Assembly (NCBI GenBank): GCA_019322375.1
Contig: JAHWIP010000003.1
Coordinates: forward strand, 6,792 to 70,791
Reading direction: 5' to 3'
From: Candidatus Woesearchaeota archaeon
GTDB taxonomy: Archaea; Nanobdellota; Nanobdellia; Woesearchaeales; SM23-78
DNA length: 64,000 nt
The notes beneath the pieces are model-generated. The model had not been told where the DNA came from, did not search any database, and saw only the letters and a program-made list of their open reading frames with translations. How positions within the stretch are numbered: position 1 is the stretch's first letter; every line of letters begins with the position of its first letter. Shown piece by piece: positions 27,569-61,579 of the stretch. The translations under genes and the position numbers were made by a program.

Positions 27569-28780
27569 TTAGAGTAATTCTTCAGGAAAAGGATATTGCT
27601 CTTTTTCCCATATCTCTTTTCCATCACTAGATTTATAATAGTAATTAGCCAAGTAGTTCTCAGTAAAACAAACTACTAATTTATTAAACCAATAAAGATT
27701 GCAGGCTTCTGTTTTTTCTATTTTAAAGCAAACCAAGCCGTCATCCAAAACAACCTTTTCGATCTCTTCTTCAGGACATTCTTCATATTGGTATATACGT
27801 TTTAATACATTAAAGAGAAATAGTTTTTGCATTTGTTCAGGATTCTCTTCAAATAGTGTACTATTTCGGATAATTCTTTTCTCTCCTGTTTCTTCATTAG
27901 TTTTTAATAATAAATACTGGATATACTCTCCATTACAGAAGTAAGCATGTTCTTTATTAATTTCAATAGAAAACTCAGAGCCAGGGAAATAATTGTGTGT
28001 GGTTTGGTTAACTTTAAAGCAATCTTCAGAAGGATTTCCAAGATAACTGATTAATTCTGGATAAACCGACTCCTTGCAATCTCCTTCGCAGCCTTTGAGT
28101 TGCTCACTAATCTTAAAATCAAAAATTAATTGTTCAAAGGTTTTCTTTATATCATTAATTTGATTTGTATCTAATTCATATCCTACAAGCTTCCATCTAA
28201 CCAGATTTCCACAATGTCCTCCATAATCCTCATAATACATTAATTCATCATTATTATTAAAACATATCATAAAAGTCGGTTTATCTAATTCCAGAATAGA
28301 AAAACAGTTTATACCATTAATTGGAACTTTTGAAAAATGAATATCTAGCTTTGGTTGAAGCTTGTTCTTCAATATGTTAATGATTCTATCAATAGATAGT
28401 GGTGTAGTACGTAAACTAATTTCGTCAGATAAATTAACGTTTTCATATAAAGGTTCACACTCTTCATGGCTTTTACACGAATATTTTTCTTCATCTTTAT
28501 ATCCTTCGCGTCCATAAAAACCATCTATTTTATGAAATTCTACTAACCGACCATCTTCAAATCTTCCAGACATATTTTTTTCTATTGTTCCTCCTGACCA
28601 TGAGCATCTATAAAATTGTGTGAATTGATAATCACCTGGGATTCCAACAGATTCCAGTTTATCGTAGAATTCTTTATTCTCACCAACCAAATTAGAAGCA
28701 TCTTCTGGTGGCTTAGAACCACATCCAGTAATCAAGAAAAGAAGGCATATTATTAAGATTCCATTTAATATTTTGTGCAT
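27569..28780 (-). CDS. Putative lipoprotein, Cys-containing
   Basis: MHKILNGILIICLLFLITGCGS carries a lipobox-like LITGC. Confidence 0.5.
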   Translation of the reverse strand: MHKILNGILIICLLFLITGCGSKPPEDASNLVGENKEFYDKLESVGIPGDYQFTQFYRCSWSGGTIEKNMSGRFEDGRLVEFHKIDGFYGREGYKDEEKYSCKSHEECEPLYENVNLSDEISLRTTPLSIDRIINILKNKLQPKLDIHFSKVPINGINCFSILELDKPTFMICFNNNDELMYYEDYGGHCGNLVRWKLVGYELDTNQINDIKKTFEQLIFDFKISEQLKGCEGDCKESVYPELISYLGNPSEDCFKVNQTTHNYFPGSEFSIEINKEHAYFCNGEYIQYLLLKTNEETGEKRIIRNSTLFEENPEQMQKLFLFNVLKRIYQYEECPEEEIEKVVLDDGLVCFKIEKTEACNLYWFNKLVVCFTENYLANYYYKSSDGKEIWEKEQYPFPEELL

Positions 28781-32266: not shown

Positions 32267-32626
32267 GGTAGAGCAGTTATAAGCCGCCTTTTGTCAGCCT
32301 CCACGTCTTGCATGGGCAGGCTGTGCTTAACATTCTACTAAGCGTCTCAAAGGACTTGCACCAGTGAGGACTCGCCGTTTCACCCATTCCCATGGCTTAA
32401 AGCGGTCGGGTTGTTAACTCGCGCCCTGTTGCCAGAGTGCTTCATTACCCTCATTCCTATCCATAGGTGGTCTCGTTTCTGAGCCGTTGCCCTGGCTTTC
32501 ACCAGCTAGCTTCCACTAGTCACTTTTCATGGTGGGCGGACTTTCCTAAGCAGAACAAGTCAAAACCGCGCCTTTGAAAGCGCAGGAAATGATAGGTCCT
32601 ACCTGCTGTTAAGCCACTGCCCTACC
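32267..32626 (-). ncRNA. rnpB: RNase P RNA, archaeal type A
   Basis: On the minus strand: P1 pairing GGTAGGGCAGT (5') with ACTGCTCTACC (3'). CR-I GGAAAGTCCGCCC, GGGTGAAACGGCG, and CR-V ACAAAAGGCGGCTTATA. A G+C-rich island with no ORF. Confidence 0.85.
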
Positions 32627-33044: not shown

Positions 33045-33335
33045 ATGAAGTTCTTGAATAATAAGAAAGGAGTCCAGCTAACCCTTTCTACAGTGGTTAT
33101 TGCAGTGCTTGTAATCATTGTGCTCATAGTGTTGATAGTGATTTTTACCCAGGGAACAGGCTTGTTCAACATAGGAATAACCAGCTGCGCTGATAGGGGA
33201 GGTAATTGTAATTACGAATCAGCAGATCAATGCGTTGATACTGGCGGCAGTGTTTACAGGTTTGGCAAGTGCACCGACGGGGTTTGCTGTATTCCTAAGG
33301 ACAAGCTTTCAGGGCAAGATGATAATCAAGACTAA
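33045..33335 (+). CDS. Type IV pilin-like protein with a six-Cys module (paralog B)
   Basis: MKFLNNKKG-VQLTLSTVVIAVLVIIVLIVLIV. Module SCADRGGNCNYESADQC...GKCTDGVCCIP. Confidence 0.7.
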   Translation: MKFLNNKKGVQLTLSTVVIAVLVIIVLIVLIVIFTQGTGLFNIGITSCADRGGNCNYESADQCVDTGGSVYRFGKCTDGVCCIPKDKLSGQDDNQD

Positions 33336-35157
33336 TAAGAAGAGGGCTGAGCTCACTATAACCCAAGTAGTACTCATGGTTCTGGGTGTAGTTGTTCTTA
33401 TTGTGCTGCTTTTTGTTTTGAAAATAATACCCACAGGAATTAGAAGTCTTACGAGCTGCTCTGACTGGGGGCAGTGCAGGCCAGGAAATGTTTGCGCACC
33501 AAATGAATACATAAAATTTGAAGCAAAGGATGACTGTCCTGCAAACCATGTGTGCTGCGTGCCTACAACCACAAGGCCAGGACCTCTTCAGGATTTTAAT
33601 GAAAAAGAGCTTGAATACCTGAGAAATGCTATTATCATAAAGCTTAACAATGACCCTACGCCTATAAGCGATGTAGCAAGCCTTAACTTAAAAGTTGATA
33701 CTAATTATACATTTCGTATAAGTATTAATGATAAGCTCACCAAGGATAAAAAAACAAGTGAAAAGCTTGGCCCTTGCGCTGTTTATGTGGTTGACACAAG
33801 AGAAGCAGGCAAGAAATATTTATTAACAAATAAAGGCTGGGACTTGATTCTTTCTGACAAAGAGATTGATTTGAGCGGCATAGAGCTGGCTGAGTGCACT
33901 GAAGAAAGCATTAGGTTAAAAAAATATTCTCCTTCACTAAATGATGTTTACAAGGACTTGGTGCTGTATGTTATTCTTTTGGATAAGGAAGTTGTTGATG
34001 CACTTGAAGTATTAGAAACACACGACCCTGGCTTTGTTAAACTAACTGCTCCTGGGTTTGGCAGTGGAATTAATCTCCCTGATAGGGGGATGGCAGCTTT
34101 TTATAATCTCACAACAATGTACAGCAATGTTGACCACTGGCTTGCTTACAGAGCCATAAGACTTAATGTTGAGCCAGTAGTCCAGATTAGTGGTATGAGC
34201 GGAATATGGGTTGACAAGGACCCAATAACCATATCCTGCCCTGATGTTACCTGCATCAGGTTTGGCTTAAAACTAGTGAAACTAAAAGACAATGATTATT
34301 TACAGTTGGTAGAAGAGTGCAAGAAGCCAGAAGGCTTTAAGTACACTCTTGATTATGTTGCAGGAACAACAACAAAAACAACAGGCATACCATTGAACAT
34401 TAATATTGGAGGTTTCAGGATTCCTCCTCAAAGACAAAAACTCCAGTACATTGTAAGCCAAAAACCAATAACTGTTGTTAATAATAAAGCAGATGTTTTG
34501 ATTGACAGGGCTACCATGCTAAAAACCTTTTACTCAGGAGACCACGAGTTATTAATCGAGGACACTACTTATCTTTGCGTAGAAGCCACCAAGGATGACG
34601 GCTCAAAGGTTCATGGGCTCTCAGAGCAGCCTATTAAAGTGGATGTTTTTCCGCCCATGGTTGACCCTGACAAGGATGTGCAGTTATTTTATCCAGACCC
34701 AGTGATCTCATCAGACATATCAACCCCTTATTATTACAGGAAGTACCCTAAGATTGTTGTTTCTGGATGCTATGATTATGGCCAGAGCGGATGCACTAAT
34801 TATGATTACTATATTCATTCAGGAGAATTTGTTAATCTAAGGTCTCTGACAGCAGAGTGGGAGATAGGAATTGCTTCTTTGATACTAACAGAGGGCTTGA
34901 ATGCCCTGCTCACTTATTTTGCAGAAAAAGATGCTGTCAACACTATATGCCCGTTTATAACCAGCCATTCTTACACAAGAAACACCCGCAATGAGATAAG
35001 AATCCCAAGGCAAGGGCAGGGCATAATATGCATCAGGGTTAGTGACAAAGTAGGCAACAAAGACATTATCTGGAAGGTGCTCTGGACACCTGAAGAGATG
35101 TTCAAGAAAATTATTGCAGAAGGAGTGGCAGAGGCAGAAGAAGCAGTGACTGGATAG
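33319..35157 (+). CDS. Large pilin-like protein: class III-type N-terminus, six-Cys module, ~530-aa unassigned ectodomain
   Basis: The track start 33235 lies inside the previous gene. ATG 33319 gives MIIKTNKKRA-ELTITQVVLMVLGVVVLIVLLFVL, then SCSDWGQCRPGNVC...DCPANHVCCVP. Confidence 0.65.
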   Translation: MIIKTNKKRAELTITQVVLMVLGVVVLIVLLFVLKIIPTGIRSLTSCSDWGQCRPGNVCAPNEYIKFEAKDDCPANHVCCVPTTTRPGPLQDFNEKELEYLRNAIIIKLNNDPTPISDVASLNLKVDTNYTFRISINDKLTKDKKTSEKLGPCAVYVVDTREAGKKYLLTNKGWDLILSDKEIDLSGIELAECTEESIRLKKYSPSLNDVYKDLVLYVILLDKEVVDALEVLETHDPGFVKLTAPGFGSGINLPDRGMAAFYNLTTMYSNVDHWLAYRAIRLNVEPVVQISGMSGIWVDKDPITISCPDVTCIRFGLKLVKLKDNDYLQLVEECKKPEGFKYTLDYVAGTTTKTTGIPLNINIGGFRIPPQRQKLQYIVSQKPITVVNNKADVLIDRATMLKTFYSGDHELLIEDTTYLCVEATKDDGSKVHGLSEQPIKVDVFPPMVDPDKDVQLFYPDPVISSDISTPYYYRKYPKIVVSGCYDYGQSGCTNYDYYIHSGEFVNLRSLTAEWEIGIASLILTEGLNALLTYFAEKDAVNTICPFITSHSYTRNTRNEIRIPRQGQGIICIRVSDKVGNKDIIWKVLWTPEEMFKKIIAEGVAEAEEAVTG

Positions 35158-39872: not shown

Positions 39873-41027
39873 ATGGCTTGGATGAATAAAAAAGGCGGTG
39901 AAAGACAGATTGGACTTAGCGAACTTACGCTTTATGTGTTTGTCATTCTGCTTATAGTTGTCTTATTTATTGTTAGCTATAGGTTTATCGGAGCTTTTCT
40001 CAGAGGAGGAGTTGATAAAGACACTGAGTCTAATTTTGTGTCACTGGCAGAGAACCTTGAGTTAATGATTGAGAAAGACGCAGGGTTTGAATACCAGACC
40101 ATGATTTTTTATATGAAAGAAAAGCATTTTGTGTTTGGCTTTACATCCAAGCAGGCTCTTTCCTCTTCTCCAGCAAAGCATTTTATGCCTGAGAAATGCA
40201 ATGAGCACTCATGCCTTTGCCTGTATAAAGAACCTGATGATGTAGCAGATGACAAGCCTGTCAAGTGCATATCTTTTGGGCACAAGGTTATTTTTCATGG
40301 CTATGACTTAAAAAAAGTGTCTGCTGCTCAGCTGGTTTATCCTGACCTAGGAGCAGAGCTGGGTGCGCGTGAGCAAGGAGAATCTTATTATTTATCTGAT
40401 TATCCTGAAACTATTTCTTTTTATATAGAAGGCTTGTTTATTGGCCCTTCACTAGACAATCCTCATGACCTTTACCTGGAAAAAATAGTTGCTAATAACA
40501 GGGTGCATGTTTTTGTGACTCCTGGCCTTAAGCAGGAAATGATAGAGACAAGGATTGAACTGTTATCTCCCTGCCCTTTTGATTCTGATGAAGAATGCAT
40601 GGGCAAGAGAAGAAACTCTGTTCTGGGCAGTAATGATTATTGTTTTTATGATGAGAGCCAGGCTAAGTGCTTGTTAAAAAAAGATGTGGATGCCTGTTCT
40701 TTCTCAGACAGAATTACACAGCCCTGTCTTTGCGGCTCTACATTTATAGACCCAGACACCAGGACAGAAGAAACCTATTGTTATCAAAAATCTGATAAAA
40801 GGATTTTTGTCCTTCCATTTGACTGCGATTCAGAGGAATTAAGAGAAAAAAAATGCCTTGCTTACTGCAGGGCAATCACTGATACAGAGGACTGCGACAC
40901 AAGAGAACAGGATTACTGTGATAAAGACCCTTGCGAGTTTGCTTCTAAAGAAAAGCCGTGCGAAGTGCGCCCATTAGGCAAAAAAACTTATTGTGCTTCT
41001 TACTCAAGGGATTACAGCATGGATTAA
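39873..41027 (+). CDS. Pilin-like, very Cys-rich ectoprotein
   Basis: MAWMNKKGGERQIG-LSELTLYVFVILLIVVLFIV. Many Cys in the C-terminal two thirds (e.g. DCDSEELREKKCLAYCRAITDTEDCDTREQDYCDKDPCEF). Confidence 0.65.
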   Translation: MAWMNKKGGERQIGLSELTLYVFVILLIVVLFIVSYRFIGAFLRGGVDKDTESNFVSLAENLELMIEKDAGFEYQTMIFYMKEKHFVFGFTSKQALSSSPAKHFMPEKCNEHSCLCLYKEPDDVADDKPVKCISFGHKVIFHGYDLKKVSAAQLVYPDLGAELGAREQGESYYLSDYPETISFYIEGLFIGPSLDNPHDLYLEKIVANNRVHVFVTPGLKQEMIETRIELLSPCPFDSDEECMGKRRNSVLGSNDYCFYDESQAKCLLKKDVDACSFSDRITQPCLCGSTFIDPDTRTEETYCYQKSDKRIFVLPFDCDSEELREKKCLAYCRAITDTEDCDTREQDYCDKDPCEFASKEKPCEVRPLGKKTYCASYSRDYSMD

Positions 41028-42865: not shown

Positions 42866-45800
42866 ATGGATAAAGTAAAACTGAGATTAAAAAACAGAAA
42901 AGCACAGGTTTACCCGCTTTTTGTAGTGGTCTTTACAATAGTGGCCTTGACAACAGCCCTTATTGGCTTGAGCAATGCAAAAGAGGTTACTGATTTATCT
43001 GGCAGGGAAATGCTTATCGGCACCAAGCAATCAGCTGTTTTTGCATCTCTTCAAGACGCAGATGCTGTTAGTTTATTCATAGAGCAGGCAGCAGAATTTG
43101 CAGGCCAGCAAGCCCTGGATAAAATAAGAAAATCATGCTTTTTTGGAGTTGATGAGGAACAAGAAGTTGATGAGTGGGAGTCTCCATGCGGCAAGTTTGT
43201 TTATCCTCTTTGGAGCACTAATGAAAATCTTTGCCTTCCTGATTGTGAAACAGCTTTTGTCAATGCCTTTAACAAGGATTTTTTAAGCCGAACAAACAAG
43301 TATTATGAGTTCACAAACATAGAGCTGCCTATTTCTTATAACATGAGCCTGGAAATACATGACAATCATTTTTTTGTTCATGGAACCTCTGACACAGAAC
43401 TAAGGATTAATGTGGTTGATATTCAGAGCAGGATTAAGTCTCCCCTGGCAATAGCCCAGACTTATGAGGAAGGCAGGCTTATCTGGCCTGTTGATTACTC
43501 TGACCACACAATCACCTCTTGCTTTGGTGAAAGAGATGTTGTTGGGGGGAGCAAATACCATCCTGCTGTTGATATCCGGGCTCCAAAAGGAACACCAGTG
43601 CTGGCAGCTGCTTTAGGAAAAGTGATTCTTACTGACCCTTGCTGGGGAAGAATTGTTATTAATCATGGCTCTGGCTTAAGCACAGAGTATCTTCACTTGG
43701 AAAAAATTGATGTTAAGGTTAATGATGATGTGGTGCAGGGACAAAGAATAGGAACTTCTGGCAGCAATGGCTGTGACACAAGAGAGTTTGTTCCGCACCT
43801 GCATTTTGGGGTTATATATCAAGGTGTTCAGTCACCCATGCATTATAAAGGGCAGGAAATAGTTTTGAGCAACAACCATATCCAGCCCATGTGCTTGATT
43901 GAAAAAGGGTATGCTGCTAAGCCAGAAAGCAACTGCAACCAGCTTGTGAACACAGACTTAGACAAGATTTGTGAATTGTATAATCTGCCAGAAGAATTTT
44001 TTGAATCATCAGAATCATCAAAGCCATCAGAGCCATCAGAACCAGACCAAGACACTTCTTCTGAAGAAAGTGCTGATGCAGAGAATGCTGGTGCAGAAAG
44101 TGTTAATGCAGAAAGCACTGAGCTGGATTATTCTCTGGCACAGGCTCCTGGCAGCTATGCTTTTAAACCATCTTTTACCTTGAGGGTTAACAAGAAAATA
44201 GAAAACCCTATTGAGCCAGTAACAGAGTGGTTTGAGAACACCTGGAACGAGTGCGAGGATGACCCTTGGAAATGTTTAAGAGAAAAAATGAGTGAGTTTA
44301 ATGAGCAGGACTATGATTACAAGCTCATGTTTGCTGACAGGTGCGAGGAAGGCTATCACTTGTTCTATGACATACTGGAGTTTTTTGAGGACTGCTTTTC
44401 AAACCAGAAGTATGGGTGCTCATGCGAGTTTAATTTATCAGATGCTTTTTCAATAACTGACTTGCGAATAGTTTTTGACACACAAGCAAACACAGCCTCT
44501 CTTTTTTCCAAGCAGGGAGATAAGCCTGGTGATGAATATGAATTAATTGATTCATACCAGTTCTATTATGGAAGCATAACCAAGCCAGCCCCTGCTTCTC
44601 CTTATAGGTATTATGTGTATCAGCTTGATTATGATGATTATGGGGAGCTGGAAAATGCAGAGCTTATGCAAATGAAGTCATTGCTTGATGTATTTGATGT
44701 TGTGCCTTTTTTTGATTACAAAGAACTAAGACTGGCAAAGCCAGGAGAGGCTGAGCAAGGATATTTTGTGAACACAGAAACAATTCAGTGCAAGTACAAG
44801 AAGAACAAGTTCAGGCTGTGTGCAAAGCCAGCACAGGAAAGAGAAGACTTGTTCCCTATAAGGTTTGCTTTTCACTTAAAAGACAAGCCTCCTGAGCCTG
44901 TTAAAAAAGGAGATGTGGAAATTATAGAGGTGGAGGAGAGTTCTGAGTCAGATGTTGACAAGGTAATGCAGGCAGCAGGCTTTCTAGGAACCATATTCCC
45001 TCCTCTAGGCTACTTGTTCACAGCAATTAATATTCTCAGTGTGTTGGAAGACTTTAAACCAAGAAAGTTCGAGGTAATAGTTGATGTTCCTCTTGACAAG
45101 GATGGCAAACCCCTGGATGTTGCTGGCTATGAAGTTTATTGCAGTGATTACCTGACAAACATCCTGCCAGTGGATGTTTTGGATAAATATAATCCAAGTC
45201 ATTTTGTTGTGATGGCTAATGATGAGATGAATAAAAAAGTAAGCCAGCTAGACCAGTATGTTAAGAAGAACCCTTACACAGACTTTCTGAATCTTGAGAG
45301 CTGTGATGTGCCTGTGAGCAAGTTCACAGGAGAAACCATTCTTGTGCCTGGAATCAAAGGGGTTGTTAAGGACGGTAAAATGGTTTTCAACCTTCATAAA
45401 TGCGGGGACTTGGCAATAATTATAGATAAACTAATAAGAAAAGACTACTGTGTATCACTAATACCTGTTGACAAGAATGGCAACAAGATAATGGAGCATG
45501 CTGTGAGCAACTGCGCGCAAACCAATTCACTGCTTGACCTGGTTATTAGTGAGATGATAGAGGAACAGCTAGGAGAATTTATTCCTGCAAGCCTTATACC
45601 TGATAATTTAAAGCCTTATATCAAGCTGCCTGACACAAGCGATATTGTTAATGCAGTAACAGGGGAAGGCAGTTTTGACATGATAGACATTGTTAATCTT
45701 GACAAGCTGGACGCAGACATAAAAAATTATCTTGAGGAATTCGTGGTTGGAACTATTAATGAAGACATAATAGGCACTTCTGTTGTTAATTCTATTGATG

Positions 45801-46639
45801 ACTTAAAGCTCTGGGAAAAACAAACAGTGCTTAACACCCTGTCAAACCAGATAAAAAATGATGATGCAAAAACCTTGTTTGATGCCTTTGTAACAGGAGA
45901 AGGTGTTGCTGAGTCTGCCAAGCGCATGGCTTATGAAAAAGGAGTAGGATATATAGACCAGACAAAAACACCTGAGATACTTAAGGAGATAGCCAAAGGA
46001 GAAGACCCTAAAAGCCTTGCATACCAGGAACTGGTAAAAGCAGCTGAGAAAGAGCTCAGCACTGACGAGAAAAAACAGGCTCTGCTGGAGATAGCCAGGA
46101 GCAGCAGTGGAAGAGAGGTAAAAGATAAGATAATAGAAAAAGCCCTTGAAAAAGGATGCGGCGAGTCATATGGAATAAGTGCAGAGCAGGCAATCAACTG
46201 CCTTGACAATGAAGAGGTAGAAAATATTTATCACAAAGTTCTGACAGACTACAGCACACCAGACAAGGTAAAACAGTTTTTGCTTGACAAGGCAATTGAC
46301 AAGTTTGATGAAAAAACACCAGACGTGCTAAAAGAGATTGTTCTGAAAAGAGACTTTAAAGGAGCAGCAAAGGACATGCTTGAGAAAGAGCTTGACAAGC
46401 TTCCAGACGCTGTTAAGAAAGAGTTTATTACTGATATACTTGAAGGCAGGCTTCCAGATGTTGAGTACTTGCAGCAGGAACTAGTGAAAATGATACCAGC
46501 AGTAAACAATGAATATGTGAATGCCCTGCTAAAAGACGGCAATGTTAAAAACCTGATAGAATCAACCCTTAAATCAGAGATAGAAAAACAACTAGGCTCA
46601 TTCTTCTCAGATGAATGCGTGGCAATTAATAAGGATTGA
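42866..46639 (+). CDS. Giant (1257-aa) pilin-like protein with an M23 (LytM-type) metallopeptidase domain
   Basis: KNRKA-QVYPLFVVVFTIVALTTALIGL N-terminus. M23 motifs YHPAVDIRAP (HxxxD) and PHLHFGV (HxH) at about nt 43478-43841. Acidic S/E linker, an internal hydrophobic segment at about nt 44972-45046, and a K/E-rich repetitive helical C-terminus. Confidence 0.7.
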   Translation: MDKVKLRLKNRKAQVYPLFVVVFTIVALTTALIGLSNAKEVTDLSGREMLIGTKQSAVFASLQDADAVSLFIEQAAEFAGQQALDKIRKSCFFGVDEEQEVDEWESPCGKFVYPLWSTNENLCLPDCETAFVNAFNKDFLSRTNKYYEFTNIELPISYNMSLEIHDNHFFVHGTSDTELRINVVDIQSRIKSPLAIAQTYEEGRLIWPVDYSDHTITSCFGERDVVGGSKYHPAVDIRAPKGTPVLAAALGKVILTDPCWGRIVINHGSGLSTEYLHLEKIDVKVNDDVVQGQRIGTSGSNGCDTREFVPHLHFGVIYQGVQSPMHYKGQEIVLSNNHIQPMCLIEKGYAAKPESNCNQLVNTDLDKICELYNLPEEFFESSESSKPSEPSEPDQDTSSEESADAENAGAESVNAESTELDYSLAQAPGSYAFKPSFTLRVNKKIENPIEPVTEWFENTWNECEDDPWKCLREKMSEFNEQDYDYKLMFADRCEEGYHLFYDILEFFEDCFSNQKYGCSCEFNLSDAFSITDLRIVFDTQANTASLFSKQGDKPGDEYELIDSYQFYYGSITKPAPASPYRYYVYQLDYDDYGELENAELMQMKSLLDVFDVVPFFDYKELRLAKPGEAEQGYFVNTETIQCKYKKNKFRLCAKPAQEREDLFPIRFAFHLKDKPPEPVKKGDVEIIEVEESSESDVDKVMQAAGFLGTIFPPLGYLFTAINILSVLEDFKPRKFEVIVDVPLDKDGKPLDVAGYEVYCSDYLTNILPVDVLDKYNPSHFVVMANDEMNKKVSQLDQYVKKNPYTDFLNLESCDVPVSKFTGETILVPGIKGVVKDGKMVFNLHKCGDLAIIIDKLIRKDYCVSLIPVDKNGNKIMEHAVSNCAQTNSLLDLVISEMIEEQLGEFIPASLIPDNLKPYIKLPDTSDIVNAVTGEGSFDMIDIVNLDKLDADIKNYLEEFVVGTINEDIIGTSVVNSIDDLKLWEKQTVLNTLSNQIKNDDAKTLFDAFVTGEGVAESAKRMAYEKGVGYIDQTKTPEILKEIAKGEDPKSLAYQELVKAAEKELSTDEKKQALLEIARSSSGREVKDKIIEKALEKGCGESYGISAEQAINCLDNEEVENIYHKVLTDYSTPDKVKQFLLDKAIDKFDEKTPDVLKEIVLKRDFKGAAKDMLEKELDKLPDAVKKEFITDILEGRLPDVEYLQQELVKMIPAVNNEYVNALLKDGNVKNLIESTLKSEIEKQLGSFFSDECVAINKD

Positions 46640-48091: not shown

Positions 48092-50200
48092 TTATCTTAC
48101 AACCCTGTCAAGACCAGCTTTTATAAAGGGCTCTTTTAATTTGTTTAATGCTTTTAATTCAATCTGTCTTATTCTTTCCCTGGTAACTTTGAATTCTATA
48201 CCAACTTCGTCCAAGGTATGGAAATTATACTTACCAATTCCAAAGCGCATGTAAAGAATTTTAATTTTTCTTTTACGGTCAGGATCCTTTTTAAAAGTGT
48301 CATGGATAACTTTTCTGACCTGATAACCTACTAATGATTGTGCAGCAGCATGTTCAGTATCAGCTTTTGGATCCTCAACAAGCTCACCTATTTCAACCTC
48401 TACTTCTTCTCCTATTGTTGTTGATAGTGAGATTGGTTTTTCAGCCCATTTTTTATACTTCTCAACTCTTTCCTCAGCAACATTCATTTCTTTAGCAACT
48501 TCTTCTGTTGTTGGCTCTCTGCCTAACCTGCCAAATAATTTCCTGGCAATTCCCAAGTACTTGTTTATTTTTTCCACTGAATGCACAGGAGTCCTGATAG
48601 TCCTTGCCTGGTCTGCTATAGCCCTTGTTATTGACTGTTTAATCCACCAAGTAGCATATGTTGAAAATTTATACCCTCTTCTGTATTCCCAGCTGTCTAT
48701 TGCTCTTAGAGCTCCCATGTTTCCCTCCTGAATCAGGTCAGTAAATTCCATACCCCTGTGCTGGTATTTTTTTGCTATACTCACAACCAGTTTTGTATTT
48801 GAACTTGCAAGCTCATTTTTGTTAGATATAAGCTCATCATGAAGCTTTTCTATTTCAGGGCTAACAGGGTCAAGATGAGGAAATATTGATTTGTAAGTTT
48901 CATAAGTTTTTTTCCAGTATTTTTTTTTGAATTTAAGTTTGCTAAGAAGCTTTTTCAGTGCAAAATCTCCTTTTTCTTTGGCATTATGAAAGTTCTCTAT
49001 AAATTCTATTTTTTCCCGAGCAGTCTTCTCATAACCTTTCCAAAGTCGTACTATTTCATCCGGGTGATTTATTTTAATAGCCTTTTCTATATCTTTTACA
49101 ACATAATCAACCAGGCATTCTGGCTTCTTATTGTCGCCTTGCAGGGAGCGCTCTTCAGACAATCCATTGTACAAGAAATTCCTGCTCTCAATTGTTTTGA
49201 ACTCATTAAACAGTTCTGTTAAGTATTTTGTTACAAACAAGTATTTTCCTAGAAAAGATTTTAGGGCTTTCTCCCTTCTTTTCTCAGCCTTTTCAAACTT
49301 TTTTTTGAAGACGTTCACATCTTCACAACAAATAATATCTTCAAGGTCTTTTCCCTTGTTTTCAAGGGTTTCATCCAAGCTTTCACCATGTTTTTTATTC
49401 AAGGCTTCCTGGGCTTCCAGGGCTTCATTAATATCCTTTCTTATTTTATTTAAGATATATTTTTTCTCAATAATATGCTTGAATATTTCTTCTCTTTTCT
49501 GCTCTATTTTTTTTCCAAAAGCATATTCCTGCTCTCTTGTTAGCAAGGCGTGCTTGCCCATGGAACTTAAAATAAAACTTGTTTCACTGCCAATATATGT
49601 CTTTCTCAAGTCTACTTTATCCTCCTCAAGGTCAGAGTACTCTTTTATCAAGAACTTATAATTATCATTAAAAATCTTATTTTTGTTTTCCAGAGCAGTT
49701 CTGTGCATGTCAAGAAGCAAGTTATAATAGAACTTTCTAACATCTGCCCTGTCATATTTTTTTCCATAGTCTAACTTAACAGGGTCGACATACCTGCTTA
49801 GTATAATGTCATGTTTTTTCATGTATGGGTCTCCGAATTCTTTTGGAGTCTTGGTTTCAATCTCTCTTTTTTTTTGCATCAGGTATGCCATAAATCCCCT
49901 TAACGAGATATAACTGTCTCTGTTTATATAGTCCAGGCAGAAAAAAGGATTTTTCTTAGCAAGCTTGATAAGAGCGCTGTTTTCAATATGAAATACTTTA
50001 GCAAGGTCAGCTGTTCTGAGCCTTTGGGAGTATCCAACTTCTTGTTTTAGAACAGAACCTTTTTGTATCAGGTCAAGAAAGAATTTTGAATCCATCTCTA
50101 TGTTTTCCCAGACAGAGGCTCCGAATTTTTCTTTGATTTGAGCAGGGCGCAGGTATATACCTTTGCTCTCTTCTAGAAAAGCATGGGCTGCTTCTTGCAT
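48092..50200 (-). CDS. Bacterial-type sigma-70 family protein (regions 1.2, 2, 3, 4) with a long N-terminal extension
   Basis: [53 protein letters not shown] (regions 2.1-2.4), [14 protein letters not shown] (1.2-like) and [18 protein letters not shown] (4.2 HTH). Confidence 0.8.
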
Positions 50201-50266: not shown

Positions 50267-52498
50267 TTAAACAATTTGGTATTCTTGCCTTACCTTCTTG
50301 TTTTTTTCAATGATAGGGATGAGCTGCTCTACAGCGCTTTTATGAAAAGCCTTTAAGTAGGTGTCTGTTGATGTCATTTTTAAGAAAGGAAAATCAGGGT
50401 CTGTGCTCATTCTGCTAAGCTGTTTGGGCTGAATCCTCATGCCAGTTGCTTCATATATATAATTTGAAGCTTGATGCACTCCAATTGTTTCTTTCTTGTC
50501 TTTTTTTATTAGTTCTATTTTTTCATCAAAGAACTTGGTAATAAAGATTTCTTCAAAACCGTTTTTTACAAGATAAACAGGCATGGTATTGCCTAGTTTT
50601 TCTATGTAGCTTATTTTCTTTTCAGGGTTATTGAACTCGTATCTTCTGAGATTCTTGATTAGTTTGGTTTCTATATGCTGGAACCGGGTTACACTTGTCC
50701 TTGCAAAGTTCTCTCTTATTATCTCAACCAGAAGTTTGTGCCCCCTAATTTTCTGAAGAATTTCAATTGCTTCAGCTCCCTTGTAAGTTTCGCTTGGTCT
50801 TTGATTAAAGAGACCTGCTTCTGCAAGCCTTCTGAAAACCAAAAGATTTCTTCCAGTGATTTCTGAAAGTTCTGACCCAGGGTACAGCCTTAAAGGATAA
50901 ATCTCTAGCATGTCTGGCCTGGTTTCAAGCCTTAAATCACCAATGCCTTCAAAAATCTGGGCAAGAGTCCTGCTGTTTTTAGATATAAGATTGTCATCTT
51001 CTTCAAAATACATTTCATCCAGCATGTCTATGAAACGCTTCATACCAAACTCTTTGAACTGCTCTGCTCTGTGCTTTGCAATAGCATACCCACAGTCCCT
51101 GCGAAATTCTGCTTTGAGGTGAGCCAAAAGATTTCTATCATCCTCAATTCTTTTTTCCTTATTTATGTAAATAACAGCACCATCTTCCTCTGTTTCCATA
51201 TATTTAGCAAAAGGGCCGGAAACTGATGGTTCTGCCAGCTCAATTTTAGTTTTTTTGTCTAATCTTTTTTCAACCCAGTCTGTTGCTTCTTTAAGAAAAT
51301 TTCTTAGCTTTGCTTCTTCTTTTTTTTCCTGCTCTCTCTTTATGTTTGTATAGATTCCGCGAGCAATATTTTTTATATGACTTTTTAGTTCTAAAAGCTC
51401 CTCAGTCCCTTTTTGTATGCGCTGCTTGTCAAATCCAAGATCTGGCTTTAATGATTCTACTTCTATAAACCCATATGTGCGTGCTGCAAAACCCAGAGCC
51501 ATTTCTTCCAGCTTGACAATTCCTCCTTCGCCCAGGGTTCTTCCAACCACAAGATGAATTCCACGCACATCCTTTTCTATTGTTTTATGCGGAAGATAAT
51601 ATATATGCCCTCTAATAGGACCGCATTTTTCTAGGGCATCCTTGATTTCATAAACAATTGCTTCTTTTGGAATAGGGGTTTCTATCTCTATATCATTCAT
51701 TTTTACTCTAAAAGCAGGGCTGAGCTGGAGTGCAAACTTTTGTTTAATCAAATCAGCAAGCTTGTCTGTTTCAATTGTGATTTTTCCTTTTTTAGAACCC
51801 AAAGGCTTCATAATGATTTCTGTGCCATGTTTTTTTTGGTCAGTTATTCTTTCTTCACTATAACTAACCTTTCCCCATAAGCCCTGATTAATTATTTTTT
51901 CTAAAGAACCATACTCTTCCTCAACATCCTCTATAAGCAGACTGGTGTTTAACTCAGGTATGGTGTGAGGGGATTCTCTTTTATCAAGAACTCTTTTGAC
52001 AATCCGCTCAATATATTTATCTTTTTGCTTCTCATTAAGATTCATCTCTTCAAACTTAGGGCTGGTTAAGATGGAGTGCTGAATGGTTTTTCTTACAAAC
52101 ACCTCTTTGGTATGATATTTTTTTCCTTTTCCTTTTTTTACTGTGCTCATTTGATAGCCAAAACAAAGGTATCTTATGAACTCCTTGCCTACTCCTGCAT
52201 CACCTATTTTTAGTCTTCCAGTGCGGGTTCTGGGGTTAAGCTTCTTAATATTAGTGCCATAAGTATTGAAGTGCTTAAGGTCTTCAAGATTCATGCCTTC
52301 CCCATTATCTCTTATGAGAAGACTTTTATTTTTATCATCAATTATTATTTCCACAAGAGGAGCATCTGCATCCCAGGCATTATCAATGCCCTGTATTATT
52401 GCTTCATAAGGGCTTAGAAATAGGGATTTGCCAAGATTCTCATGAAACTCTTTTGAGATTCCTCTCCTTACTTTAACAGTTTTCTTTGTCATCAACAC
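50267..52498 (-). CDS. GHKL-superfamily (HATPase_c_3 / MORC-like) ATPase with a large unassigned C-terminal region
   Basis: N-box IDNAWDADA, G1 box IRDNGEGM and G2-like GDAGVGKEF in the first ~110 aa. 743 aa in total. Confidence 0.65.
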   Translation of the reverse strand: MLMTKKTVKVRRGISKEFHENLGKSLFLSPYEAIIQGIDNAWDADAPLVEIIIDDKNKSLLIRDNGEGMNLEDLKHFNTYGTNIKKLNPRTRTGRLKIGDAGVGKEFIRYLCFGYQMSTVKKGKGKKYHTKEVFVRKTIQHSILTSPKFEEMNLNEKQKDKYIERIVKRVLDKRESPHTIPELNTSLLIEDVEEEYGSLEKIINQGLWGKVSYSEERITDQKKHGTEIIMKPLGSKKGKITIETDKLADLIKQKFALQLSPAFRVKMNDIEIETPIPKEAIVYEIKDALEKCGPIRGHIYYLPHKTIEKDVRGIHLVVGRTLGEGGIVKLEEMALGFAARTYGFIEVESLKPDLGFDKQRIQKGTEELLELKSHIKNIARGIYTNIKREQEKKEEAKLRNFLKEATDWVEKRLDKKTKIELAEPSVSGPFAKYMETEEDGAVIYINKEKRIEDDRNLLAHLKAEFRRDCGYAIAKHRAEQFKEFGMKRFIDMLDEMYFEEDDNLISKNSRTLAQIFEGIGDLRLETRPDMLEIYPLRLYPGSELSEITGRNLLVFRRLAEAGLFNQRPSETYKGAEAIEILQKIRGHKLLVEIIRENFARTSVTRFQHIETKLIKNLRRYEFNNPEKKISYIEKLGNTMPVYLVKNGFEEIFITKFFDEKIELIKKDKKETIGVHQASNYIYEATGMRIQPKQLSRMSTDPDFPFLKMTSTDTYLKAFHKSAVEQLIPIIEKNKKVRQEYQIV

Positions 52499-52676
52499 CC
52501 CCCGCGCCCCTCTGTTTTGCTACTGAATAATAGATATTTTATTTAAACCTTTCTATTTTAGAGACACAGATTTGACAGATAATAATTGCAAGCCATGTTT
52601 ATATACTTTACTCAGGGATGTCCAGTGCCTATTTTAGAAAATTTTTTAAACTACTGTTCTTATACCATATACTAGA

Positions 52677-53739: not shown

Positions 53740-54135
53740 TTAATAAAGATAGTCCGGAGTTCCCCAGTACCCTCCGCAGCCTTTACAAGCAGATTCTGAG
53801 CTACATGCACGGTTATACTTGCAGCATCCAGGAGTTTTTCTTGAAGTTGCATAACAAAAACATGTCACCCGACCACAATGAGGATCTCCCCCGCCAGATT
53901 CCATTGGCTTTCCCACCACGTTTTCTTCTTCCATTACTTCAGAAAGCATGTCATATTCCTCATCAGTAAGCCCAGACACAACATATGCCTTTTGTAATTC
54001 AGGTTCAGATGTTGTTGTAATTGTGGCTGCCTCTTCCCCTCTATTCATAAACATAACTACTATTGCCACTATGGCTACTATTGCTACCATTGCTATTAGT
54101 GCGAATAAGTAGTTGCCTTTGTCTTTTTCTGCCAT
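53740..54135 (-). CDS. Small N-terminally anchored protein with a Cys-rich C-terminus
   Basis: NYLFALIAMVAIVAIVAIVVMF anchor. C-terminus CGRVTCFCYATSRKTPGCCKYNRACSSESACKGCGGYW. Confidence 0.5.
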   Translation of the reverse strand: MAEKDKGNYLFALIAMVAIVAIVAIVVMFMNRGEEAATITTTSEPELQKAYVVSGLTDEEYDMLSEVMEEENVVGKPMESGGGDPHCGRVTCFCYATSRKTPGCCKYNRACSSESACKGCGGYWGTPDYLY

Positions 54136-54264: not shown

Positions 54265-57200
54265 ATGTTTTCCTGGGCTTGTATGGCACAATCATCCATG
54301 TTTATTGGCAAGTTTGAATTTGAAGGGCCAGGCTCACACCTAACCATGACTCTTTGGCAGGGTAACAAGGCTTACCAGTTCTCAACTAATTTCATAGGGG
54401 TTTATCCTAATGACCAGACCAAGCTTAAGAAGAAAAAAACCATTTGGCCTGCAAGCAGGGAAAAAAAGATTTCTCTTGAAAAAATACTTGTGGAACAGGG
54501 CTTGGAAAAATCAGATTCTTTTGATATAAAACAGGGAGAATACGCCTTTGATATAATAGACAAAAGAATTGTGCAGCTTTTTCTGGATAAAAGAGATTAT
54601 GACAAGCTTCCGGAAGAAGCAACCAATGAGCTGATCACCTGCCACACTCAAAGCATGAAATGGGATTTTGGAATCATGCAAAAAGCAGAGATAGAGTCCT
54701 GGTTGTTAAAGATACTAAAGGAAAAGAGCAAGTTAGACCAGGAAATTGATTCCTTGTACAAGGCAATGCTCAGGACCAATAAGAAACAATTAACAGGTTC
54801 ATTAGATGATATAACGAGTTTTATTAAAAAAGATTATCATAAAGATGACTTTGATAAAAAAATTATTCCTTTGCTTTTTGAAAGCATTGGGTACAGATTT
54901 AAACAACAAGAAGATAAAAATTTATTGATTCACCTATTTCAGCAGACCAGGTATTCTTTTAAGCACAAGCATCATTATATTAATGCACAGAAAAAAGTGT
55001 TTGAGCCTTTAGACATAGAGATTGATTACCCTAAATTAACAGACAAGAAAAATGATGCTTATTATAAAAAGATATTAAAAAAGCCTTTTGGCAGAAGATT
55101 TCTTGAAAACAGCAAGCAGGTGCTTGGTGAAAAAGGCATAGATGCAATATTTTCCAAAGATAAGGAGATATACATCCTTAAATCAGAGCAGGAAGAATTG
55201 TTTAATACCTTTAAGAGACTGCTGAGCCATAAAGCAGAGTATCCTGATGTAGAGGACTATGTGGAGAGCATAAAATACCAGCTGGAAGACTTGTTCTGCA
55301 GAGTACAATACTTTAATCTTCACAGCAAGACACGCAAAGACCTTAGGAAGCTGGTTAAGGAAAAACTAGAAGAAATAGGGGGCGAAGAGAGAGACAAAGA
55401 TAATTTGAATTATGATAAAAAGATTTTTGAACGTGCACAAAGACTCAGGCAAAAAAAGCAGGACTTGGAGAGCAGGATTAAGCAGATAAAAAGCTCCAAC
55501 ACCCTGAAGTATGACTTTGACTACCAGAGAACAATGCTCTTTCTTGACATAATGCACAGGCATCCTGAAGTAAAAGGAGATGATAAGCTTAAAAAAAAGC
55601 TTAGAAAAAAGATTTATTTTGAAGGAATAAAACCAAAAGGAATGATTAATGAGCATGAATGGCTTGACCAGACACCCAGTGTTTTCCTGGACATAGAAAA
55701 ATTTCAGTATGGAACACCAGAAGAGGTTATTAATGCAATTATATCTTCTGTAAGAAGAGTAGATGGAGAATACATAGGGCGGATAGATACTGATATTGAT
55801 TCAGGAGAAAAAAATATTCTTGGTTTTCAAATAAAACACCACCATAATAATATGAACCTGATGCTATCCTCTGCTGATTTTATTAATCCAGAAAGATGCT
55901 ATACTTACTTTACCCAGGGCGACTATGATTTTAAGCATTTAAGCAAAACCAGGCTTTTTAGGACTGGCAAGGAAAAAGTGATTGTTCCAAGGCAAAAGGT
56001 GCATGAGGAGTTTATCAGGCGTTATGACATACCAGGCGTATCTATTAACACAGTCACGCTTGCAAAAATAATTTGGCCTCACCTGCTTAATCACAGATTA
56101 GCAACTCTTGTCAACAAATTATATCAAAAAGAAGGAACAGAAAAAGTATTTGAAAAATCATTTGACTATGAAGAATTAAGAGAACAAGCAGGGTTGGCCA
56201 AAAAAGGAGATAAAGAAAAAGCTTATGACATACTATATTATGGAGGGGATGATGTTGATAAACCATTCAAAGCCTGGCTTCATCCAAAAGCCAGATACAT
56301 CTTTAAAGACCTGCTGGAAGTGTGCAACACCTTTGGCATAACACCTGACCAGGCAAGCTCTAATGCTAACACAGCAGCCCATCTTTTTGAAAAAAGATTT
56401 TATGAAAAATCCGGAGGCATACTCTCTCCAGGCATCTTTAGGCAGAAACACCAGGAATTGGCCAAGGAGTTCAGAAACAAATATACTGAGTACAGAACCA
56501 AACATTTGCTAGAGCAAGGCCTGAAAATAGATTTTGAAAGAGGAGTCCAGGACAATGTCAGCCAGCTCTACTTTTCTCCAGAACTGTTCATATGCAAAGT
56601 GCTTTACCCTGATTTTCCAGGAGTAAAAGCCTTTGTTGACAGAACCATGCGCATGAAAAACCCTGAAAGAAAGGTCAGCAGGCTGCAGTATGTAAAACCC
56701 TTTGTGGTAAGCATGCTAACAGATTTATACGGAATTCATAAGATACAAGACGAGATAAAAGTGCTTGAGAAAGAAAAAGCTGAACTTCTTGAGGAAATAA
56801 GAGGAATGCCTGAAAGCCAGGAAAAACAGTCGGAAAAAGAACAAAAAATAAAGGCTTTTGGAGGGAAATGGGAAAAAATCATTGACAAATTAATAAGCAT
56901 GAATAATAAGAAGTATTTCTTTGGACAACTATTCGGAGTTAAATGCGAAAAAGTAGAGGAAAGAGTACAGCAGGCATACAAAACAATAGCAGATGTAATC
57001 AATGAGAATGATATTCATCCCTTGCAAATAAAAGGCAACTTTATCTATGCAAAAGAAAATCTTCCTGACAAGGTGCTGAGAAAAGCAGGCTTGTTCAGGA
57101 TGAGGAATATGCGAATATTTAATATGCAGAAAAATGAACTCACTTTTCATGCAGAAGACCAGTACGCAGGCTACCCGCCCAGGCTTGACCGCCCGGGTTT

Positions 57201-57738
57201 TCATTACAGCATGTTCCAGACAAGAATAATCAAAGAAGCCCTGGACAGGCTTTTGCAAAAAAAAGAAGACTATCTTGGAGTCCTTAATATTATAAACACA
57301 AGCTCAACCAAATTATCTGCAGACCTGCCAACAGCCCTTGTTAATCCTAAATTAGAAAAAAACCAGGCATTTATACAGGACTTGTTAAAATACAATAGAA
57401 CCAAGAACCGCTATGTGGGCAATGATGAAAAAGGAAAAAGAGAATTTACAGAGCACAACAAAAAATTCTACAGGCCAGATCCCAAGTACTTTATGAGAAA
57501 GTTCTATGGAAAAACAAGCAAAGACATAGATGTTCATGCTCCTATAGCCAAGCTCTTTGGAGGAATAATAAACCTGGGAGAAGACAATTCCAGTGATACA
57601 AAAAAAGAATTTTGGCGTCAAAGACAGATGTACAGGCAGCTAATATCTGAGACTATGCTGAGCAGGCAGGAATTAAAGCAGATTTTAAACCAAGAGCTTG
57701 CAGTGCATGAACCAGGCGGACAGTTTATTATTATGTAA
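54265..57738 (+). CDS. Divergent family-B DNA polymerase-like protein (exonuclease motifs present, polymerase motif C not recognisable)
   Basis: Exo I VFLDIEKF, Exo II YFTQGDYDFKHL, Exo III YDILYYGGDDVDK, motif-A-like VQDNVSQLYFSPE. Where YGDTDS is expected I read IKGNFIYAKE, and where KKRYAG is expected I read EDQYAGY. Start codon uncertain. Confidence 0.45.
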   Translation: MFSWACMAQSSMFIGKFEFEGPGSHLTMTLWQGNKAYQFSTNFIGVYPNDQTKLKKKKTIWPASREKKISLEKILVEQGLEKSDSFDIKQGEYAFDIIDKRIVQLFLDKRDYDKLPEEATNELITCHTQSMKWDFGIMQKAEIESWLLKILKEKSKLDQEIDSLYKAMLRTNKKQLTGSLDDITSFIKKDYHKDDFDKKIIPLLFESIGYRFKQQEDKNLLIHLFQQTRYSFKHKHHYINAQKKVFEPLDIEIDYPKLTDKKNDAYYKKILKKPFGRRFLENSKQVLGEKGIDAIFSKDKEIYILKSEQEELFNTFKRLLSHKAEYPDVEDYVESIKYQLEDLFCRVQYFNLHSKTRKDLRKLVKEKLEEIGGEERDKDNLNYDKKIFERAQRLRQKKQDLESRIKQIKSSNTLKYDFDYQRTMLFLDIMHRHPEVKGDDKLKKKLRKKIYFEGIKPKGMINEHEWLDQTPSVFLDIEKFQYGTPEEVINAIISSVRRVDGEYIGRIDTDIDSGEKNILGFQIKHHHNNMNLMLSSADFINPERCYTYFTQGDYDFKHLSKTRLFRTGKEKVIVPRQKVHEEFIRRYDIPGVSINTVTLAKIIWPHLLNHRLATLVNKLYQKEGTEKVFEKSFDYEELREQAGLAKKGDKEKAYDILYYGGDDVDKPFKAWLHPKARYIFKDLLEVCNTFGITPDQASSNANTAAHLFEKRFYEKSGGILSPGIFRQKHQELAKEFRNKYTEYRTKHLLEQGLKIDFERGVQDNVSQLYFSPELFICKVLYPDFPGVKAFVDRTMRMKNPERKVSRLQYVKPFVVSMLTDLYGIHKIQDEIKVLEKEKAELLEEIRGMPESQEKQSEKEQKIKAFGGKWEKIIDKLISMNNKKYFFGQLFGVKCEKVEERVQQAYKTIADVINENDIHPLQIKGNFIYAKENLPDKVLRKAGLFRMRNMRIFNMQKNELTFHAEDQYAGYPPRLDRPGFHYSMFQTRIIKEALDRLLQKKEDYLGVLNIINTSSTKLSADLPTALVNPKLEKNQAFIQDLLKYNRTKNRYVGNDEKGKREFTEHNKKFYRPDPKYFMRKFYGKTSKDIDVHAPIAKLFGGIINLGEDNSSDTKKEFWRQRQMYRQLISETMLSRQELKQILNQELAVHEPGGQFIIM

Positions 57739-61412: not shown

Positions 61413-61579
61413 TTTCTTTTTTTCTCGCGAACATAGTGAGCGAGCAAATAATTATTTTTAACTTAATTTTTAATTCAATTCTTGTTTTAATCTTATAAAA
61501 ATTTTCCGAAAATCTGCACTGGACACACTGGACATGGGGACGTAGGATATATAAAGGACTCTGGCTTCTCTATATGTAA

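Follow-up and report, generated by a model that had tools for sequence, protein, structure and literature searches.

How should a protein be read that resembles a family-B DNA polymerase (PolB) and carries an apparently intact proofreading site beside polymerase motifs that look degenerate? The question is raised by an open reading frame (ORF) at positions 54265..57738 (+ strand) of a 64,000-nucleotide (nt) stretch of DNA from a Candidatus Woesearchaeota archaeon (contig JAHWIP010000003.1), the whole of which is referred to here as the window. The ORF is intact and encodes 1157 amino acids (aa) followed by a stop codon, and we read its product as a PolB-derived, exonuclease-positive and polymerase-negative (exo+/pol-) protein. 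A first-pass annotation had described it as PolB-like with intact exonuclease and degenerate polymerase motifs, and this description is well supported: profile and structure searches recover PolBs strongly, and the exonuclease residues are present in 44 to 46 of 46 aligned family members. The interpretation that we favor, and hold to be reasonably probable from the sequence evidence, is that of a PolB-derived exonuclease, probably tethered to the sliding clamp PCNA, in which a dead polymerase body would serve as a DNA-holding scaffold.

Relationship to family-B polymerases

The relationship to PolBs is invisible to searches with the target alone, which has no match in Pfam, NCBIfam or PDB (phmmer) even at E<=10, neither PF00136 (DNA_pol_B) nor PF03104 (DNA_pol_B_exo1) included. 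A word-indexed search of 5.8 billion proteins returned only four full-length relatives (39-100% identity), all annotated as 'hypothetical', and the same type of search with the family alignment returned these four proteins and none further. A profile of the four finds nothing in PDB (hmmsearch) and is aligned to Pfu Pol by hhalign with a probability of 0.2%, and the AlphaFold model derived from the four-sequence alignment is unusable, with a predicted local distance difference test score (pLDDT) of 40. When the four-sequence profile was run exhaustively with HMMER against 1.84 billion cluster representatives, 52 relatives were recovered, the distant ones matching the profile at positions ~440-830. 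The family alignment used here (A2) contains 46 sequences, and is the basis of all residue counts given out of 46, of the family profile searches, and of the good AlphaFold model.

With the 46-sequence profile, the relationship is evident. In PDB (hmmsearch), it matches Thermococcales PolB at E=3e-15, Pol delta at ~1e-5, and E. coli Pol II at 0.006, and the match comprises the exonuclease domain together with a second collinear stretch in the thumb-base helices (PDB PolB residues 620-668). Alignment of the family with Pfu Pol by hhalign gives a probability of 97.4% and E=1e-11 over 487 columns, covering Pfu residues 134-668; the identity of the Pfu query was confirmed by its full-length match (residues 1-775, about 1750 bits) to 3a2f/2jgu. 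The larger alignment also remedied the structure prediction, with a mean pLDDT of 90.2 and a predicted template modeling score (pTM) of 0.89, and Foldseek searches of PDB and BFVD with this model return PolBs throughout, many viral PolBs among them. The predicted exo-palm-fingers-palm-thumb architecture is collinear with, and superposes on, solved PolBs. The PolB homology of the family is thus secure and structurally collinear, but because the single-sequence and four-sequence searches are empty it takes a wide family profile or a structure to see it. The comparison with the DNA_pol_B profile that had been suggested at first pass fails for the single sequence, and the homology that it was meant to reveal emerges only at these greater depths. 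Within the family, PF03104 is matched by P0014, P0016, P0019, and P0042, and above its curated cut-off only by P0014, P0016, and P0042; PF00136 is matched by none of 20 proteins scanned (the target and 19 relatives). We looked for two outcomes that would speak against a degenerate PolB, an absent PolB profile match and a DTD motif that had been mis-placed, and neither came true.

The exonuclease and polymerase halves

The DEDDy 3'-5' exonuclease domain, of the PolB type, spans aa 469-672 (55669..56280, +), as delimited by hmmsearch, hhalign, and the family alignment. Its catalytic residues are D476-I-E478 of Exo I (55690..55698, +; Asp and Glu each in 46/46), D555 of Exo II (55927..55929, +; Asp in 44/46, Glu in 2/46), and Y659-x3-D663 of Exo III (56239..56253, +; Tyr and Asp each in 46/46). 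These lie within the strings that had been picked out at first pass, VFLDIEKF (aa 473, nt 55681), YFTQGDYDFKHL (aa 548, nt 55906), and YDILYYGGDDVDK (aa 654, nt 56224), all three of which were correctly identified. In the hhalign comparison, D476/E478 pair with Pfu D141/E143, D555 with D215, and Y659/D663 with Y311/D315. Between Exo II and Exo III, K631 (56155..56157, +) is invariant (46/46) and is paired with Pfu K289, within two residues of K287; we take its position to fit the PolB-specific auxiliary lysine of the Kx2hxA motif (Pfu K287). Most family members have a mean identity to the query of only 14-20%, and retention of the exonuclease residues in 44-46/46 at such divergence is the signature of a catalytic site under selection. 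Judged by its residues, the exonuclease active site is complete in the target and in the family.

The polymerase half has a very different character. Palm part 1 and the degenerate motif A block (aa 756-810; 56530..56694, +), placed by hhalign, the family alignment, and AlphaFold secondary structure, can be written G760-x4-V765-x3-Y769-F-S-P-E773, and the model has a strand at 760-770 followed by a helix from 773, as in the PolB topology. The motif-A-like string VQDNVSQLYFSPE is present as first described, at aa 761 (nt 56545), but the catalytic Asp site is not the D/N of its 'QDNVS' segment. Pfu YLD405FRALY410 stands opposite Y769-F-S771-P-E-L-F-I776 in the hhalign comparison, and the partner of the motif A Asp is S771 in this register, Y769 by ungapped spacing from the conserved G760 and V765, or F770 by the end of the strand in the model. 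There is no acid in any of these registers, positions 769-772 are acidic in 0/46 members, and the steric-gate Tyr (Pfu Y410) is replaced by I776. The fingers-like region (aa 811-893; 56695..56943, +) is a pair of long antiparallel helices (811-847 and 852-890 in the model) in which motif B, KxxxNSxYG, is unrecognizable; the aligned segment is NNKKYFFGQLFG, with Pfu KLLANSFYG opposite NNKKYFFGQ and without N-S-x-Y-G.

Palm part 2 (aa 894-980; 56944..57204, +), placed by hhalign and AlphaFold secondary structure, contains the motif C hairpin at 918-930 (HPLQIK-GN-FIYAK). IKGNFIYAKE (aa 922, nt 57028) had been proposed to stand in place of motif C, and hhalign agrees in setting IKG924N925F926I opposite Pfu YID541TD543G; for the same motif, I-D541-T-D543 is also given against K923-G924-N925-F926. 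In the model, strands 918-923 and 926-930 flank a turn at G924-N925, which makes N925 an alternative partner of D543 through a one-residue shift. G924 is present in 32/46 members and position 926 is aromatic in 37/46, whereas D925 is found in only 14/46; the nine closest relatives have N, G, or K at 925, and Asp never occurs there in the target clade. The KxY hairpin is shortened and lacks K-x-Y, with Pfu KKRY opposite a gap. The first-pass annotation had rightly reported EDQYAGY (aa 964, nt 57154) and the lack of a KxY motif in it, but its equivalence to the KxY position was misaligned, since EDQYAGYP pairs with Pfu EGFYKRGFF; the block PGFHYSMFQTRIIKEALDRLL that it placed downstream was found at aa 977 (nt 57193). 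The 52 relatives that the exhaustive search yielded contain neither DxxSLYP nor xDTD. By these alignments, the polymerase catalytic residues of motifs A, B, and C, of KxY, and of the steric gate are lost.

The loss of these residues is not accompanied by decay of the fold. Among the close homologs, 0.33 and 0.34 of the positions in the two palm parts are invariant, and 0.27 of those in the exonuclease domain; the palm is at least as conserved as the exonuclease domain, which argues that the polymerase half is maintained by selection. The thumb-like domain (aa 981-1146; 57205..57702, +) is supported by the second stretch of the hmmsearch match and by hhalign, and homology links its first helices to the base of the PolB thumb, with Pfu RRDWSEIAKETQARVLETIL paired with GFHYSMFQTRIIKEALDRLL. 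Direct reading finds no Cys in aa 981-1157 (the C-terminal 177 residues), and there are no Cys clusters in the thumb.

A sub-group of the family (P0016, P0020, P0022, P0024, P0030, P0035, P0036, P0040, P0041, P0042, P0044, P0046, P0049, and P0052; ~680-1000 aa) lacks the thumb. These proteins end just past the motif C hairpin and have a charged helical insertion of ~55 aa directly after Exo I. An 'EE' after the motif A strand and a 'GDY' at the motif C turn occur together in 10/14 of them, and in none of the 32 members with a thumb, and may constitute a residual or alternative palm metal site.

Regions outside the two halves are distinctive as well. The N-terminal region (aa 1-143; 54265..54693, +) is beta-rich, with strands at aa 13-49, 92-108, and 139-143 in the pLDDT-90 model, and is conserved in the family, the fragments P0010, P0012, and P0029 matching profile positions 4-202; hhalign finds no similarity to the PolB N-terminal domain (Pfu 1-135) in aa 1-145 or aa 405-470. 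It is followed by an all-alpha, coiled-coil-like module of ~265 aa (aa 145-410; 54697..55494, +) that precedes the exonuclease domain, is without counterpart in canonical PolBs, and gives matches of the coiled-coil type only. As to where translation begins, the ATG at 54265 is the first in frame and gives the 1157-aa product, whereas the NCBI entry for the ORF (hypothetical protein KY348_00535, from a Candidatus Woesearchaeota metagenome-assembled genome) has 1151 aa and starts at Met7 (nt 54283). Because homolog alignments also begin only at Met7, this is likely the true start; a TATA-like TTTATAAAA at ~54193, ~65 nt upstream of the ORF, is by direct reading compatible with either.

At the other end, the protein has a disordered tail (57703..57735, +; pLDDT below 50 for aa 1145-1157) that ends in ...HEPGGQFIIM. 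PCNA-interacting protein (PIP) boxes, Qxx[LIM]xx[FY][FYW], usually lie at a disordered terminus and bind PCNA, and the C-terminus of E. coli Pol II is a clamp-binding pentapeptide of the QLGLF type, similar to the QGxLF tails of this family. The shorter Qxx[LIM]F, which is like a shortened PIP box or the clamp-binding pentapeptide of bacteria, is found in the last 12 aa of 12-13 of the 46 members (0.04-0.28 expected from internal windows), in the variants QGTLF, QGKLF, QGRLF, QGELF, QISLF, and QFILF. GGQFIIM of the target occupies this clamp-binding or PIP-like position in a weaker form.

Proposed function and alternatives

Under our interpretation, the polymerase active site has been dismantled in a family-B derivative that fully preserved its 3'-5' proofreading site, and the protein would act as a stand-alone 3'-5' exonuclease on primer-template or other 3'-ended DNA. 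The dead palm, fingers, and thumb would still grip the duplex, holding the substrate permanently in the geometry of the editing mode, so that the primer end would be delivered only to the exonuclease site. The Qxx[LIM]F-type tail would tether the protein to PCNA, and the helical insert of ~265 aa probably serves to contact a partner. The protein's likely roles would be to proofread in trans or to trim 3' ends in replication or repair, beside a separate replicase. An accessory role of this kind is plausible given that Woesearchaeota and Pacearchaeota carry a bacterial-type B7 PolB (PMC7544198) and that Pacearchaeota carry PolD (PMC8204110).

A bolder version of this proposal, for which we see only a modest chance, is that the protein is an obligatory replisome component of Woesearchaeota-type DPANN archaea, organizing the fork through contacts of tail and insert with PCNA and CMG/GINS and proofreading in trans. 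Were it true, it would provide a prokaryotic parallel to the division of labor between catalytic and non-catalytic PolB modules in eukaryotic Pol epsilon, and would show that a PolB can evolve into a dedicated clamp-bound exonuclease.

Several observations weigh against a clamp-tethered, polymerase-dead exonuclease. First, GGQFIIM of the target is not a canonical PIP box, the 8-residue form being absent, and the short Qxx[LIM]F is found in only about a quarter of the family. Second, the genomic neighborhoods of family members are variable and have no fixed operon partner across the family. Third, the call of inactivity deserves caution, since PolB2/Dpo2 had been judged inactive on comparable grounds, from its motifs, and yet is reported to be a working translesion polymerase (PMC7544198; PMC7390963). 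Finally, a carboxylate could be supplied by E773, which the target clade conserves.

This last residue is central to the alternative that survives best, namely that the protein is a very divergent but active DNA (or RNA or xeno nucleic acid) polymerase whose two-metal site has been rebuilt, for example from E773 with E931 or D975. A palm as conserved as the exonuclease domain would be expected of such an enzyme; E773 occurs in 24/46 members, including all nine of the closest homologs; and there are precedents in PolB2, with its relocated Asp, and in piPolB, which lacks the first motif C Asp (PMC7544198). We nonetheless regard it as unlikely, because no acid is conserved family-wide in palm part 1 (the motif A positions 769-772 included) or in the motif C hairpin. 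Position 925 is non-acidic throughout the target clade, acids at 773 and 925 are never combined in the 32 members that have a thumb, and KxY, motif B, and the steric gate are lost too; every PolB known to be active retains the Asp of motif A and the second Asp of motif C (PMC7544198).

A somewhat smaller chance attaches to a purely structural replisome subunit that would use neither site and, like the non-catalytic C-terminal half of Pol epsilon, would bridge PCNA, CMG, and other partners through its insert and tail. A polymerase-like body conserved without catalytic residues is what this predicts, the large helical insert would suit protein-protein contacts, and members of the family lie near genes for GINS, PCNA, RFC, and RPA. 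What disfavors it is the exonuclease site, six residues of which persist in 44-46/46 members at 14-20% identity; Pol epsilon-C and PolB2 lost these residues (PMC2669801, PMC7544198).

Decay of a polymerase from a mobile element or virus (casposon, pPolB plasmid, or provirus) is most improbable even though PolB genes are common cargo of archaeal mobile elements, many viral PolBs are among the Foldseek matches, and a nearby sigma70/GHKL-ATPase gene pair is an insertion by comparison with the syntenic locus, because the ORF is conserved at full length and 39-55% identity with the same neighbors in four species-level genomes, the gene is neither flanked by terminal inverted repeats nor adjacent to genes for Cas1, an integrase, a terminal protein, or a capsid, distant members lie among ribosomal-protein, eIF, and replication genes, and an invariant exonuclease site with a constrained palm argues against decay. 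A casposon or other mobile-element origin was rejected from the lack of terminal inverted repeats and the conserved synteny, and a defense-system or phage polymerase was rejected in the absence of meaningful PADLOC or PHROGs matches.

Comparison with known PolBs places the exonuclease-positive, polymerase-negative reading among a small set of precedents. The closest known relatives are the archaeal B3-type PolBs of Pyrococcus and Thermococcus (Pfu, Tgo, KOD, and P. abyssi; PDB 4flt, 1qqc, and 2jgu), from which the target differs at ~13% identity by lacking the motif A Asp, DTD, KxY, motif B, the steric-gate Tyr, and a Pfam DNA_pol_B match, by having the extra ~265-aa helical module before the exonuclease domain, and by an N-terminal region that is unlike the PolB N-terminal domain in sequence. 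Archaeal PolB2 (Rogozin et al. 2008, PMC2527604; B2/G2 in Kazlauskas et al. 2020, PMC7544198; Sulfolobus Dpo2) is likewise an archaeal PolB derivative with substituted polymerase motifs and a sequence-based prediction of inactivity. The B2/G2 groups have no Exo III and an unconserved Exo I, but they retain the motif A Asp, one Asp of motif C, and a D(K/R) motif that compensates, and Dpo2 polymerizes (PMC7544198). The target shows the reverse, with Exo I and Exo III invariant, the polymerase carboxylates gone, and no motif C Asp. Pol epsilon-C, a replisome scaffold, is also a PolB-fold module without polymerase catalysis (Tahirov et al. 2009, PMC2669801), but both of its sites are inactivated and it has C-terminal Zn/Fe-S Cys motifs (CysA/CysB), whereas the target has an intact exonuclease site and no C-terminal Cys. 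In Pol alpha and Pol zeta, as in the target, one site is inactivated and the fold kept, with the opposite polarity (exonuclease dead, polymerase active). The B7 (E. coli Pol II-like) PolBs of Woesearchaeota and Pacearchaeota (PMC7544198) share the host lineage of the target family, but have canonical motifs and cluster with bacterial Pol II, whereas the exonuclease domain of the target prefers B3-type enzymes (E=3e-15) over Pol II (E=0.006).

An exonuclease-intact, polymerase-dead PolB family was not found described in the PolB diversity survey or in DPANN genomics papers, and as far as we have found this combination has not been described for family-B polymerases. Known site-disabled PolBs are either exonuclease-dead and polymerase-active (Pol alpha and zeta) or degraded at both sites (PolB2 and Pol epsilon-C), and the target would fill in the missing combination; a polymerase body might then be retained solely as a DNA-holding scaffold for a proofreading nuclease. 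The proposal also assigns a function that can be tested to a 'hypothetical' family that neither Pfam nor NCBIfam detects. Its members are found only in DPANN archaea, genome-reduced organisms (the Woesearchaeota among them tiny-celled) that combine archaeal and bacterial components in a replication and repair machinery of which little is understood. Should the protein proofread in trans on PCNA, it would bear on how fidelity is maintained in these archaea and would offer a natural model for the PolB editing mode uncoupled from synthesis.

Genomic context and neighboring genes

The gene lies in the order RPA / CARDB protein / YdjM / small Cys-rich ORF / target / SpoIIM-like membrane protein ... 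RadA, and the same order is kept at the locus of a 54%-identical homolog from 'Euryarchaeota archaeon SM23-78' (L001; loci of family members carry such numbers here). The window is evidently part of an archaeal chromosome, since it contains an archaeal RNase P RNA (32269-32573, -), RadA, and an RPA-like protein; ARAGORN finds no tRNA genes in its 64 kb. Close homologs of the target occur in only four GTDB species representatives, and all named family members, annotated as 'hypothetical' throughout, are from Woesearchaeota or Nanoarchaeota.

Distant members lie in clearly archaeal chromosomal neighborhoods. PCNA is divergently adjacent to one (L006 8916-9653), the RFC small subunit is 2 kb from another (L008 7216-8292), GINS51 is near a third, together with ribosomal proteins (L004 20008-20646), and a Dna2/PDDEXK-like nuclease is beside a fourth, with Topo VI and a histone (L011 19293-20132); further members lie among ribosomal-protein and eIF genes or near a Rad50-like ATPase. 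The recurrent proximity of replication and repair genes is suggestive, with no conserved operon. Searches with Pfu Pol (tblastn) found no canonical PolB in the window or in the family loci examined; a weak match in L008 was discarded, as it is on the wrong strand and inside the RFC small-subunit gene.

Immediately upstream of the target and divergent from it, a 131-aa ORF (53740-54135, -) without a Pfam match carries a transmembrane segment at the N-terminus and is rich in Cys at the C-terminus (CGRVTCFC...CCKYNRACSSESACKGCGG); an ORF of similar size occupies the same slot in the SM23-78 locus (L001 9499-9852, -). Elsewhere in the window, large ORFs at 26-1891, 6629-8074, 8128-9744, 21773-23254, 27569-28780, 33235-35157, and 39873-41027 have no Pfam match.

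Between the RPA and CARDB genes are two ORFs (48092-50200, -, and 50267-52498, -) for a 702-aa protein with bacterial sigma-70 regions 1.2, 2, 3, and 4 (E~1e-20) and a 743-aa GHKL/MORC-like HATPase_c_3 protein. The SM23-78 locus, although otherwise syntenic, lacks this pair, which therefore looks inserted. Sigma-70 genes in Woesearchaeota were reported earlier (Castelle et al. 2021, PMC8204110), and a weak Sigma70_r2 gene is also present on another family-member contig (L006).

Two divergent intergenic regions, 8.85 kb apart, share an imperfect inverted repeat of ~58 nt (52598-52648 and 61496-61555; 30 nt at 83% plus 30 nt at 70%). Its arms have a TATA-like TTTATATA at the start and a common core, ATGTCCAGTGC, which has three matches in the window, all in these arms, with 0.9 expected. 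One arm precedes the CARDB-domain gene (52677, +) and the other a C25-peptidase-like gene (61412, -); the products of both genes look surface-exposed or secreted, and the repeat may represent a shared promoter or leader.

Upstream of RPA is a giant ORF (42866-46639, +) of 1257 aa with a Peptidase_M23 domain, and the same syntenic slot in the SM23-78 locus (L001 2195-6529) holds an ORF of 1444 aa with NlpC/P60 and SLT lytic-transglycosylase domains. The two DPANN genomes thus carry differing bacterial-cell-wall hydrolase domains in one slot, possibly for attack on bacterial or host envelopes.

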